Below are positions 7,173-10,200 of a stretch of 64,000 bases of DNA, piece by piece. The stretch covers positions 1 to 64,000 of the IMG/VR virus record IMGVR_UViG_3300027924_001186; one strand, written 5' to 3'. The notes under the pieces are model-generated. The model did no database searches. It was not told the DNA's origin and worked only from the letters and a program-made list of their open reading frames with translations. The first letter of the stretch is position 1. Every line of letters starts with the position of its first letter. The translations under genes and the position numbers were made by a program. Source of the DNA: a virus (lineage: Duplodnaviria; Caudoviricetes).

Positions 7173-8492
7173 ATGTTTTTAGATGATATGCCATTAACAT
7201 TATCTAACGACGAAGCACCATCATACTCTAGTATAACTACCACCACAGCTAGTGATATGAATAGAGGGGTTGCATTAACATTCGATGATGTTAGTGTCAT
7301 TCCACAGTATTCGGAGGTTCTGCCCTCCGAAGTAGATACCTCAGTTCAATTGACCCCCGAAATCAATCTGAAGGTTCCGATTATTTCTGCGGCTATGGAT
7401 ACGGTAACCGAGTATAAAATGGCTATAGCTCTCGCACAACTCGGTGGGCTCGGTGTGATACACAAGAATATGAGTATCGATGATCAGACTCGCCATGTTA
7501 GAATGGTTAAAAGACACGATGGCGGGGTTGTTAAAGACCCAATCACCGTTAACGATTATCATGCTTTGAGCGAAGTGAAAGCTCTATCCGAAGTTTCGGG
7601 TTTCAACAGTTTTCCGGTAGTTATGAATTATACGCGATATGACTCCTCTAAGAAAGTTTTAATCGGATTCTTAACGGCAAGAGACATTAGGTTTCAAACC
7701 GATGATAACATAACCGTCGAGCAGATTATGACACCTTATTCCAAACTCGTGGTGGCAACAGAAGAAATGGCACGAGATCAAATGCGAGATCTGATGTATC
7801 AGTTCAAAGTGGAAAAGATGCCGGTTGTGAAGATGGAAGGAGATACACCTATTCTTAAAGGTTTAATCACCATGAAGGATATGGAGATCATGGATAAGAT
7901 GCCGAACGCCACTCGAGATAAGGATAGACGATTGATGGTAGCAGCAGCCGTCGGAGTTTCGGATAAGGAGAAAGAGAGAGTTGCTGAATTGGTTAGTGCT
8001 GGAGTCGATGCTCTGGTAGTGGATAGCGCTCACGGACACTCGAGAAGAGTTATCGAGATGGTAGAATGGATTGCCGACAATTATCCAGAGGTTGGAATCA
8101 TCGCAGGCAATGTGGTGACCGCCGAAGGAGTAGAAGCGCTCTATCAAGCCGGAGCTAATTGCGTGAAAGTCGGGATAGGCCCGGGATGCTTCGTTCCAGG
8201 AACGAGAGTGACAACTCGAAATGGAATGACACCGATCGAAGAGATAGACGAAGGTGTAGAAGTTCTCACTCATCGTGGTAGATGGAAGAAGGTAGTTGGT
8301 AAGTCTACTTTCTCCGATAAGAAAGAGGTAACGGTGGTTAATGGTATCGCATCTACAACCGATCACAAATATTATGTCATTCATAAACGACATAAATCTT
8401 CTGTAACTGACGATAATCTACATTCGCTCGCAGAATGGATCGAAGCGAAAGATTTAACTAAAGATTATCTACTAATCAAACCGAAAGGATAG
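7173..8492 (+). CDS. guaB: IMP dehydrogenase N-terminal part fused to split intein N-half (intein starts at Cys, 8187)
   Basis: LTFDDV, SAAMDTVTE, GGLGVIHKN, CBS domains, DSAHGHS, KVGIGPG, then CFVPGTRV...TTDHKYYV intein blocks A/B, 101 aa to the stop. Confidence 0.93.
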   Translation: MFLDDMPLTLSNDEAPSYSSITTTTASDMNRGVALTFDDVSVIPQYSEVLPSEVDTSVQLTPEINLKVPIISAAMDTVTEYKMAIALAQLGGLGVIHKNMSIDDQTRHVRMVKRHDGGVVKDPITVNDYHALSEVKALSEVSGFNSFPVVMNYTRYDSSKKVLIGFLTARDIRFQTDDNITVEQIMTPYSKLVVATEEMARDQMRDLMYQFKVEKMPVVKMEGDTPILKGLITMKDMEIMDKMPNATRDKDRRLMVAAAVGVSDKEKERVAELVSAGVDALVVDSAHGHSRRVIEMVEWIADNYPEVGIIAGNVVTAEGVEALYQAGANCVKVGIGPGCFVPGTRVTTRNGMTPIEEIDEGVEVLTHRGRWKKVVGKSTFSDKKEVTVVNGIASTTDHKYYVIHKRHKSSVTDDNLHSLAEWIEAKDLTKDYLLIKPKG

Positions 8493-8497
8493 ACGAT

Positions 8498-8644
8498 ATG
8501 GAATCATTCAAAGATTTTATCAAAGAAATGGATGCTAAAAAGAAACAGGAAAGGAAGAAGGAAGAACTTGGAGATGAGAAAGCGGTTTCCGATAAGAAAT
8601 CTCCTTTTCAGGTTCAACCTGCCACCGTGGTGTCTGATGGTTAA
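8498..8644 (+). CDS. 48-aa protein with capsid-targeting-like N-terminus (MESFKDFIKE), inside the fractured guaB
   Basis: ORF read by eye; its stop overlaps the ATG at 8637 of the next gene. Confidence 0.55.
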   Translation: MESFKDFIKEMDAKKKQERKKEELGDEKAVSDKKSPFQVQPATVVSDG

Positions 8645-9527
8645 TCAGTTTCGCTCTCTCGATGGGGAGAATCTTATCTCCCCTCCTTCTCGTGGACAGC
8701 CATTCCAAATTCAGTGCCATGAATGCTCGAAGTGGTATAGTCGTAGGGCTATCACCAAAAGACTTAAAGAAGTCGACTATGTCTGTATGTCGTGTCAGAG
8801 AAGTGGCGAGAAAAACAACTTCTTTGGAAGAAAACACTCGGAAGAATCTAAAAGAAAAGCGGCGAGTTCTCGTAGAGACTATTCCGGTTCCAACAATCCT
8901 TTCTTCGGAAAATGGCATTCGGAAGAATCGAAGGAAAAGATAAGACGACATCCGGCAGTAAGGCAAAGGCTCTTTGGAGAAGATAATGGATTCTTCGGTA
9001 AGACTCACTCGGAAGAAACTCTGACTATTATTAAAGAAAAAAATCGAATTTATCAAGAAACCATGTCCGTCGAAGAAAGAGAATCGATCAGTCGAAAGCA
9101 GCGAGACGGACACCGTAGGAGGTATGAGCAAGATCCCGAATCATACATCCAAGGAAAACGAAATGGTGGGAAAGCAGCAGCGGCGATCTCTGGCAAATAC
9201 AAGATGAATAAACTCGAGAGATTTTTTCTCGATGCGGTAACCGCATCGGGGATAAACATCGAGTATTCAGTTATTCTCGATAGAAAGCAGTATGATTTCG
9301 GTAATAAAGAGAAGAGAGTGTTAATCGAAATCAACGGCGATTTCTGGCACGGTAATCCATTGATTTACCCATCACTTTCCGAAAGGCAAAAGGCTGTTCA
9401 AGAAAAAGATAGAGTTAAGAAAGAGTGGGCAGAATCGAAAGGGTTCAGAGTTCTTTCGTTCTGGGAATCGGAAATCAGAAATCAAATAGATGATGTATTA
9501 AGTGAGGTGAAAAATGCTATCTTATGA
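8637..9527 (+). CDS. Vsr-like (DUF559-type) homing endonuclease with zinc finger and NUMOD3 repeats
   Basis: [20 protein letters not shown] repeats, C-terminal YDFG...[11 protein letters not shown]...KDRVK...[12 protein letters not shown]; ATG 8637 is in frame with track ORF 8532-9527. Confidence 0.85.
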
Positions 9528-10200
9528 TTTAATCGAAATCGAAGAAATAGAGTTGAAATCTTACGATGGCGTGGTTCACGACATCGAAGTAGAAGAAGAT
9601 CATTCCTATTGCGTAGAAGGAATCGCGGTCCACAACTCGATATGCACAACCCGAGTGGTCTCCGGAGTCGGTGTACCGCAATTCACCGCTCTTCAGCATT
9701 GCTTCTCCAGATACAAAGATTTGACAATCATCTCCGATGGTGGTATCAGGTATTCGGGGGATATCTTAAAAGCCTTCGTCGCGGGAGCCGATGCGGTGAT
9801 GTTGGGTGGGCTTTTAGCAGGAACCGACGAATCTCCTGGGGAGATAGAGCTCTTTGAAGGCAGAGCCTACAAGCACTATCGTGGTATGGGGTCATTGGGA
9901 GCGATGAGTGGTACATTCAGTTCTAAAGATCGCTATTCGCAGAGCCATCTATCCACCGATAAGCTCGTACCCGAAGGTATCGAAGGTCGAGTACCTTATC
10001 GTGGTTCGGTAGCTAAAGTGATTCACCAATTGGTTGGAGGGTTGATGTCGGGTATGGGATATATTGGCGCCTCCAAATTATCTGAAATCTATAATCATGG
10101 GTACTATGTCCAGGTTACTGCGGCGGGTATGAGAGAAAGCCATCCGCATGATGTTTCGATTACTAAAAATGCACCTAACTATGCTGGGGGTCATTGCTGA
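9514..10200 (+). CDS. guaB: Split intein C-half (9514-9636) fused to IMP dehydrogenase C-terminal part
   Basis: [21 protein letters not shown] then SICTTR (Ser +1, catalytic Cys loop), [29 protein letters not shown]. Confidence 0.93.

Follow-up and report, generated by a model that had tools for sequence, protein, structure and literature searches.

The window, a 64,000-nt stretch of a 78.5-kb IMG/VR contig estimated to be 43% complete, derives from a wastewater T4-like phage in which IMP dehydrogenase is encoded by two genes, each bearing one half of a split intein. A first-pass annotation of the same DNA had placed this locus in full phage context, which holds in that the contig is that of a phage, but not as regards completeness. 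Among cultured phages, none was found to carry the locus and only weak matches of gp45 to cyanophage and other T4-like phages were obtained. The fractured guaB is arranged in the order N-extein-IntN, small ORF, homing endonuclease and IntC-C-extein, with the following features.

7173..8186, + strand: guaB N-extein, with the N-terminal part of the catalytic barrel and the CBS pair, ending in ...KVGIGPG (Pfam IMPDH and CBS; TIGR01302 positions 1-297; 86% identical to the uninterrupted guaB of contig L003)
8187..8489, + strand, TAG stop at 8490-8492: IntN, 101 aa (CFVPGT...LLIKPKG; Pfam Hint_2)
8498..8644, + strand: small ORF, 48 aa (MESFKDFIKEMDAKKK...), present in L018, L020, L021 and L022
8637..9527, + strand: predicted free-standing homing endonuclease, 296 aa (Pfam; PDB profile matches; AF2 model and Foldseek; start from homologues)
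9514..9636, + strand: IntC, 41 aa (...GIAVHN; Pfam Intein_splicing; C-termini of PDB inteins; identity to IMPDH-1 IntC)
9637..10200, + strand: guaB C-extein, 187 aa, starting with Ser+1-Ile-Cys (SICTT; Pfam IMPDH 178-345; TIGR01302 298-448; 93% identical to L003)

ORF1 (7173-8492, 439 aa) reads ...VKVGIGPG/CFVPGT...LLIKPKG-TAG, and ORF3 (9514-10200) opens with the 41-aa IntC ending in VHN, followed by SICTT. In Pfam, ORF1 matched IMPDH profile positions 1-206 and CBS and then Hint_2 at residues 339-375, and ORF3 matched Intein_splicing (residues 7-41) and IMPDH (profile positions 178-345). On the NCBIfam model TIGR01302 (IMP dehydrogenase), the N-extein covered positions 1-297 (325 bits) and the C-extein positions 298-448 (212 bits), so that the break is exact and no part of the enzyme is missing; the catalytic Cys loop and the CBS pair were both present once the exteins were joined (Pfam, TIGR01302). 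The first-pass annotation had described a break at the catalytic loop GIGPG/SICTT, a 101-aa IntN ending the first gene and a 41-aa IntC opening the second with Ser at +1, and these ORFs and coordinates were confirmed. The guaB start at 7173 is preceded by an AAGGA Shine-Dalgarno sequence and follows gp45 at the same 12-nt spacing as in relatives, with Met29 at 7257 as an alternative start. Because the same layout was seen in at least five independent assemblies (L018, L020, L021, L022 and run X5), an assembly artefact is excluded.

The residues expected of a splicing intein stand at both junctions. Cys1 of IntN directly follows the N-extein (GIGPG/C), block B reads TTDH at 57-60 (Thr57 and His60), and IntC ends in ...AVHN/SICTT, with the terminal His-Asn followed by the Ser+1 nucleophile. 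Among 140 members of the intein family, C1 was invariant, and T57 and H60 were conserved in 99% and 100%, respectively. IntC aligned to the C-termini of solved inteins in the PDB, and a PDB sequence search with IntN alone gave zero matches. The two halves are separately encoded, with a stop after IntN and with an ATG and a Shine-Dalgarno sequence of its own for IntC; this ATG sits 14 nt inside the 3' end of the endonuclease (overlap 9514-9527), and the Shine-Dalgarno sequence GAGGTG is located in the last codons of the endonuclease. The net charges of the pair are +3 for IntN and -11 for IntC.

The protein encoded between the halves had been called a Vsr-like endonuclease, with which its profiles, catalytic residues and structural matches all agree. 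Pfam assigned an I-TevI zinc finger, three NUMOD3 and DUF559. In order, the protein has an I-TevI-like zinc finger at its N-terminus, three NUMOD3 motifs and, at its C-terminus, a Vsr-like (EDxHD) nuclease domain. PDB profile matches were found to the I-TevI DNA-binding domain (2e-5), Vsr 1cw0 (2.6e-5) and I-Bth0305I 3r3p (1.7e-3), and the AF2 model (pLDDT 83) had the I-Bth0305I catalytic domain 3r3p as its top Foldseek match (TM 0.77) and Vsr as the next. In the catalytic set, E231, H238 and D258 were invariant, and D235 and D220 almost invariant. The start previously placed at 8532 was not upheld; homologues favour the ATG at 8637 (296 aa), which is most likely the true start. A homologue of this endonuclease was carried by 12 of the 12 resolved endonuclease-bearing IMG/VR loci of the intein family, and empty guaB and the endonuclease-less intein are its candidate targets.

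We also found a conserved ORF of 30-48 aa between IntN and the endonuclease, which had been overlooked in the first-pass annotation. It begins 5 nt past the IntN stop, the last IntN codons (AAAGGA) act as its Shine-Dalgarno sequence, and its TAA overlaps the ATG of the endonuclease (ATGGTTAA). The copies in L018, L020, L021 and L022 show an in-frame length difference of 18 codons, and homologues formed just 7 database clusters, all from the clade of the window. Searches of this ORF gave zero Pfam or PHROG matches and atlas scores of 0.77-0.78, all below threshold. Of 16 fractured loci described by Dassa et al. 2009 (PMC2677866), 15 have a hairpin 5' of the endonuclease start, in many cases together with a TATAAATA late-promoter element, a feature that is typical of fractured genes but not defining. 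Folding of 8470-8670 gave a z-score of 0.04 against shuffles and thus no such hairpin, TATAAATA was absent from 8300-8700 even with one mismatch allowed, and scans for sigma-70 promoters and terminators did not exceed what was expected from shuffles. The stop/start overlap of the small ORF may be an undescribed throttle on the fracturing endonuclease that replaces the RBS-sequestering hairpin, in which case it would be a small, testable addition to the control of homing-endonuclease expression.

Empty-site alleles were found in close relatives. In the syntenic sister contig L003, whose gp46 and gp45 are 89% and 93% identical to those of the window, guaB is uninterrupted and reads GIGPGSICTT; its 497 aa equal the sum of the N-extein from Met29 onwards (310 aa) and the C-extein (187 aa), it is 86% and 93% identical to the N- and C-exteins of the window, respectively, and it scored 551 bits on TIGR01302 against a cut-off of 481.5. 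Empty-site guaB was also found on wastewater DNA contigs, where 8187 is joined to 9643. In run X6, record 18 has both flanks 90-98% identical to the window, and record 19 has a downstream flank of 99.6% and an upstream flank of ~80% identity; the joins of run X7 are on short contigs with only 26-35 nt aligned on one side. These joined forms come from one DNA run and from another that is labelled RNA-Seq but is probably also DNA, and since their flanks have also diverged they represent alleles rather than spliced RNA. The RNA-labelled runs consist of contigs that may contain DNA, and cover gaps over 8248-9633 in them carry no meaning for expression.

In comparison with the distant phage L018, backbone proteins of the window were 50-65% identical and the cassette parts 77-95%, from which it follows that the cassette moves as a unit; judged from this incongruence and from the empty alleles, the whole cassette is moving between divergent phages. 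The nucleotide identity between the two rises at ~8187 and falls near 9688, the latter drop corresponding to conserved catalytic-loop codons just 3' of the IntC end at 9636. As these flanking codons are conserved anyway, co-conversion tracts at the cassette borders are not resolvable. The empty allele of L003 could have arisen through loss of the cassette instead of reflecting the state before its gain.

These observations very probably describe a mobile split-intein cassette that fractures guaB between the Gly and Ser of GIGPG/SICTT, with the product restored by trans-splicing. This reading rests on the anatomy, the homologies, the empty alleles, the incongruence between cassette and backbone and the purifying selection on all parts, and from these we infer the splicing activity, the target and activity of the endonuclease and what the small ORF does. 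N-extein-IntN and IntC-C-extein would be made as two polypeptides, and the basic IntN would associate with the very acidic IntC to form a HINT fold. Cys1, Thr57 and His60 of block B, the terminal His-Asn and Ser+1 would then perform protein trans-splicing and release a scarless IMP dehydrogenase with its catalytic loop restored, which would be 525 aa long from the start at 7173, or 497 aa from Met29 (7257), matching the intact enzyme of L003. The endonuclease would be translated separately, probably at a low level, by termination-reinitiation after the small ORF. It would cut intein-less guaB near the insertion site, and repair would copy the whole cassette in (homing).

The IMPDH halves might instead come together non-covalently, with or without the help of the intein halves, and be active without peptide ligation. 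Phage genes that are fractured yet functional without splicing have been discussed by Dassa et al. (PMC2677866) and in PMC3045599, and the fractured NrdA of Aeh1 works without an intein. We nevertheless consider this unlikely, as purifying selection acts on both intein halves (dN/dS 0.07-0.28 for IntN and 0.05-0.13 for IntC), in which every splicing residue is conserved, and the homologous IMPDH-1 intein splices efficiently (PMC11168065). The intein is also placed within the active-site loop, two residues ahead of the catalytic Cys, and a HINT domain of 142 residues retained there would probably disrupt catalysis. It is reasonable to suppose, as the first-pass annotation did, that IMPDH activity needs trans-splicing, a view favoured indirectly by the strong purifying selection that acts, in filled alleles, on the exteins and on both intein halves.

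Slightly less probable again is that the cassette disabled a dispensable auxiliary gene whose halves are now decaying. This would be in keeping with guaB being auxiliary, with a sister phage that has an intact copy and with hosts that can supply IMPDH, but dN/dS of the exteins among filled alleles was 0.03-0.11, over dS of ~1-1.6, and the five independent filled alleles had zero stops or frameshifts. Furthermore, between the window and L018 the intein halves are conserved even better than the exteins, and IntC is 93-98% conserved among cassette-bearing relatives. The dN/dS was 0.13-0.27 for the endonuclease and 0.06-0.41 for the small ORF, the range across all cassette parts and exteins being 0.03-0.41.

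Scarcely credible is the removal of the 1.45 kb as RNA, as in a group I intron with an endonuclease, or the production of one contiguous intein by readthrough or frameshifting: Vsr-like endonucleases are known in group I introns (PMC2677866) and ORF1 and the endonuclease of the window share a frame with a single TAG between them, but neither a group I intron nor any other Rfam family matched 6400-11000 at E<=1, in-frame intein blocks are encoded at the flanks of the insert, relatives conserve neither the shared frame nor the TAG (L021 has its endonuclease in a different frame, and the stop codon of L018, L020 and L021 is TAA), and a second frameshift would be required from the endonuclease into IntC.

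The split intein of the window is a new, but not unique, member of a large intein family, which comprised 215 clusters at E<=1e-10, mostly within GMP reductase genes, and included split forms with an endonuclease, split forms without an endonuclease and contiguous forms. The earlier description of a new orthologue was correct, but members of the family abound in public metagenomes. Among the 61 IMG/VR loci, IntC was resolved in all but 27, where flanks were short or the regular expression was strict, and the counts of forms are those of a sample. In the IntN tree of 101 columns, most forks were unresolved and just two split/contiguous sister pairs were starred. Four states were found at one catalytic-loop site: empty, endonuclease-filled, split without endonuclease and contiguous mini-intein. 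The first two were seen in guaB and the other two mostly in guaC, with contiguous mini-intein alleles found in CBS-type guaB too (P0029, P0030 and L019). With natural alleles in four states and a cassette that moves between divergent phages, the stepwise model of gene breaking becomes testable, and the value of the locus is in this sense comparative.

Close relatives include fractured GMP reductase (guaC-type) loci from IMG/VR and further metagenomes, such as L004, L055 and L078, whose IntN is 52-56% identical to that of the window. They carry the intein at the homologous catalytic-loop position, a homologous endonuclease (E 1e-11 to 1e-62) and the same N-positive/C-negative charge polarity as the window. 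Their host enzyme is the paralogue GMP reductase without CBS domains, whereas that of the window is guaB with CBS, and unlike the window they have no small ORF 5' of the endonuclease. In many of them the endonuclease has been lost (gap of 17-282 nt) or the intein is a contiguous mini-intein.

The endonuclease shares its nuclease fold and E/D/H/D residues with I-Bth0305I, the EDxHD prototype (PMC3239194; PDB 3r3p), at ~23% identity over the nuclease domain, and both have NUMOD-type DNA-binding modules at the N-terminus. In contrast to I-Bth0305I, whose gene lies within a phage recA group I intron, the endonuclease of the window is free-standing between intein halves, and its N-terminal region additionally matches the I-TevI zinc finger.

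The locus as a whole fits the architecture of fractured genes reported by Dassa et al. 2009 (PMC2677866), as the first-pass annotation had recognized. In their loci, the endonuclease gene extends 6-69 bp into the IntC gene, a range that includes the 14 nt of the window. The biology is already that of Dassa et al. 2009, and the locus alone would not surprise a specialist.

The closest characterized counterpart is the IMPDH-1 intein, the fractured locus of which comes from the GOS metagenome (Dassa et al. 2009, PMC2677866). IMPDH-1 was characterized by Carvajal-Vallejos 2012, as cited in PMC11168065, and its activity as a split intein has been reported experimentally (PMC11168065, PMC7090010). 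Both loci have a phage-like origin, and in both the halves are separated by a free-standing Vsr-like endonuclease whose 3' end overlaps the IntC start. The insertion site is common to the two (GxG/SIC, with Ser+1 then Ile-Cys, in the catalytic loop), the N-extein junction being GPG in the window and GGG in IMPDH-1, which Pinto et al. 2020 (PMC7090010) listed as GGG/SIC. IntN is 101 aa in both and IntC is 41 aa in the window versus 40 aa in IMPDH-1; Cys1, TxxH and the terminal HN are also common. Alignment confirmed that the window intein is allelic to IMPDH-1, with the same site and significant similarity of both halves. IntC of the window was 53% identical to the published IMPDH-1 IntC (E 3e-15; overall IntC range 53-57%). 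IntN was 43% identical (E ~4e-30) to the IMPDH-1-like IntN of the IMG/VR loci L026 and L057, from which this figure is taken, and a hand count on the printed sequence gave 40/101 for the published IMPDH-1 IntN. Given these low identities (IntN ~43%, IntC 53-57%), the earlier statement that the pair closely follows IMPDH-1 is confined to length, site and motifs and does not extend to sequence.

The two loci also differ in that the window has a coupled small ORF in place of the hairpin and late-promoter element of the IMPDH-1-type fractured locus, and its host gene is a true guaB with CBS domains, the less common type of host in the family. Moreover, the charge polarity is opposite: against the basic IntN and strongly acidic IntC of the window, IMPDH-1 has about -9 for N and +3 for C (hand count), and its IMG/VR relatives have -8 for N and 0 to +1 for C. 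Across the family, the net charges of IntN and IntC co-vary inversely (Spearman rho -0.74 over 22 distinct pairs, kinship ignored), and two polarity classes are seen, basic IntN/strongly acidic IntC as in the window and acidic IntN/basic IntC as in IMPDH-1. Given this opposite polarity despite an identical Ser+1 junction, it is plausible that the window pair is naturally orthogonal to IMPDH-1 and usable as a tool. That both this charge-based orthogonality and a throttling of the endonuclease by termination-reinitiation at the small ORF hold is a tentative proposal, to which we give somewhat less than an even chance. If true, the intein family would readily supply fast split inteins that are orthogonal to one another; in practical terms, the window provides a candidate fast Ser+1 split intein with a polarity opposite to that of IMPDH-1, for which it may serve as an orthogonal partner.

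The reading frames of the interrupted guaB locus are as follows.

7173-8492: ORF1, the N-terminal part of IMP dehydrogenase with the CBS pair to ...KVGIGPG, then at its C-terminal end the IntN, a 101-aa Hint-type segment (CFVPGT...LLIKPKG) followed by TAG
8498-8644: small ORF of 48 aa, beginning 5 nt past the IntN stop, its TAA overlapping the endonuclease ATG
From ATG 8637: endonuclease, 296 aa
9514-10200: ORF3, the 41-aa IntC to ...GIAVHN, then SICTT and the remaining IMP dehydrogenase

On the NCBIfam IMP dehydrogenase equivalog profile, the N-extein covered positions 1-297 and the C-extein positions 298-448. 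Because these pieces abut exactly and the ORF1 and ORF3 sequences agree, the split anatomy described in the first-pass annotation is correct to the residue. The window guaB also carries a 28-aa N-terminal extension (7173-7256) that is missing in the sister phage contig L003 and in the cassette-bearing relatives L020, L021 and L022, whose guaB starts immediately with the ...ALTFDD region. A Shine-Dalgarno sequence and a conserved spacing after gp45 accompany the ATG at 7173 but not Met29 (7257), and one wastewater variant showed many 1-2-nt indels in 7173-7256.

Purifying selection was evident on the cassette parts and the exteins. In filled alleles dN/dS was 0.03-0.11 for the exteins; within the cassette it was 0.07-0.28 (IntN), 0.05-0.13 (IntC), 0.13-0.27 (endonuclease) and 0.06-0.41 (small ORF). 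Such constraint on a split guaB speaks for a working enzyme being made from the split form. With the splicing residues intact and the catalytic cysteine only two residues from the intein, trans-splicing would be the simplest explanation, in support of the reading in the first-pass annotation.

Empty alleles were found both in a phage contig and in sequencing runs. L003 is syntenic with the window (gp46, gp45 and guaB products 86-93% identical), and its uninterrupted guaB reads GIGPGSICTT and encodes 497 aa, which equals the window N-extein from Met29 (310 aa) plus the C-extein (187 aa). In two wastewater runs, X6 (DNA) and X7 (probably DNA despite its RNA-Seq label), contigs pass straight from position 8187 to 9643, so that the reading G-S-I-C is regained; the X7 joins are short contigs with one side covered by only 26-35 nt. 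The joined guaB is thus a DNA allele rather than a spliced RNA; the filled form was present in a run from another study. Among the X6 empty-site contigs, record 18 was 90-98% identical to the window on both flanks, and record 19 was 99.6% identical downstream and about 80% upstream. This contrast between the flanks of record 19 puts a recombination breakpoint at the site of the intein (8173/8187 to 9643), which fits exchange promoted by a nuclease.

The cassette is mobile between phages. L018 is a contig from a phage more distant from the window, yet it bears the cassette. Its identity to the window was 57% for gp46, 65% for gp45, and 50% and 64% for the guaB exteins, against 79% for IntN, 80% for the small ORF, 77% for the endonuclease and 95% for IntC. 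At the nucleotide level, an identity of about 0.5 gives way to one of about 0.8 at the IntN border and drops again near 9688, just past the IntC end, within the conserved catalytic-loop codons.

The ORF between the halves encodes an I-TevI-type zinc finger, three NUMOD3 motifs and a C-terminal DUF559/Vsr-like domain. Comparison with relatives moved its start from 8532, as first annotated, to the ATG at 8637. A profile built from 16 sequences matched the I-TevI DNA-binding domain (E-value 2e-5), E. coli Vsr (2.6e-5) and the I-Bth0305I catalytic domain (1.7e-3) in the PDB, and the AlphaFold model (pLDDT 83) had 3r3p (I-Bth0305I) as its top structural match (TM 0.77), followed by Vsr. The E, D, H and D residues for which the EDxHD family is named (PMC3239194) are conserved. 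The putative target of the enzyme is intein-less guaB alleles.

The small ORF, conserved in relatives, had been overlooked in the earlier reading. It was found in 5/5 sequenced cassettes of the clade at a length of 30-48 aa, with an invariant N-terminus, an in-frame 18-codon length difference in one relative, and the stop/start overlap with the endonuclease kept in every cassette. The product is rich in lysine and glutamate (MESFKDFIKEMDAKKK...); database searches returned seven clusters only, every one from the cassette clade, and no family match. Dassa et al. (PMC2677866) reported that a hairpin and a TATAAATA element precede most fracturing endonucleases, and both were absent upstream of the window endonuclease. 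We hypothesize that the small ORF may provide translational coupling in place of the hairpin/TATAAATA element.

The window covers the first 64 kb of an IMG/VR viral contig of 78.5 kb (completeness estimate 43%), and DNA near-identical to it occurs in wastewater metagenomes from several studies; the closest cultured phages showed weak similarity, in gp45 only. T4-type genes for replication and recombination (uvsW, gp47, gp46 and the gp45 clamp) surround the cassette locus, and purN and PRPP synthetase genes lie downstream of guaB, forming with it a purine-supply cluster (7173-12963). Between purN and prs lies the gene of a conserved protein of 308 aa (10913-11839), also present in L003, whose N-terminus resembles a signal peptide and which had no Pfam match. 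The phage genome is heavily colonized by homing endonucleases: about a dozen more endonuclease-like ORFs in the record are marked by NUMOD3 motifs (window 46-323, 2466-2716, 20794-21027, 33461-33514, 34542-34640, 36503-36883, 42041-42271, 44148-44345, 46522-46566, 49694-49861 and 59474-59813; record coordinates 66344-66580). The guaB intein is the sole Hint domain in the 78.5-kb record.

An exhaustive IntN search against representatives of clusters at 50% identity returned 215 at E<=1e-10 and 923 at E<=1e-3. The best 150 matches were mostly N-halves with a terminal IntN (about 15 were contiguous), hosted mainly by CBS-less GMP reductase genes and in only about five cases by CBS-type guaB, as in the window. 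A pattern scan of IMG/VR gave 61 loci, with both halves resolved by script in 25, and the following forms.

Split with endonuclease: 12 loci, every endonuclease homologous to that of the window
Split, halves only 17-282 nt apart: 13 loci
Contiguous mini-intein of 138-147 aa: 5 loci

The intein-family tree contained two well-supported split/contiguous sister pairs, most of its other forks lacking resolution, and these pairs suggest that transitions between the two forms were repeated. An intein and endonuclease of the window's lineage, without the small ORF, also break a jumbo-phage GMP reductase gene at the homologous loop (GIGSG|C ... HN|SACTT), at 3001-5483 of the 375-kb IMG/VR contig L004. 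Other GMP reductase/IMPDH loci (L026, L029, L031, L036, L044, L056, L076 and others) are still split without an endonuclease, with 17-282 nt from IntN stop to IntC start; L026 among them is IMPDH-1-like. Within limited literature coverage, we found no open-access paper surveying this intein family or describing inteins in GMP reductase.

We compared the window intein with the published IMPDH-1 sequence, taken from the supplement of Pinto et al. 2020 (PMC7090010). The close correspondence claimed in the first-pass annotation held for the insertion site (GxG|SIC), for the length of IntN and for every catalytic residue, but not for sequence, where IntN was identical at 40/101 positions by hand count and IntC was 53% identical (E 3e-15). 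Taken with this moderate identity, the shared features make the window intein an allelic homologue of IMPDH-1, not a near copy. The IntNs of IMG/VR loci L026 and L057, which share the N-terminal dodecamer of IMPDH-1 and depart from its published sequence at only a few positions, were 43% identical to that of the window (E about 4e-30). Net charge is reversed, with IntN +3 and IntC -11 in the window against about -9 and about +3 in IMPDH-1, whose polarity was also remarked by Dassa et al. (PMC2677866). Across 22 distinct family pairs, the charges of IntN and IntC were anticorrelated (rho -0.74, relatedness ignored). The window intein may be orthogonal to IMPDH-1.
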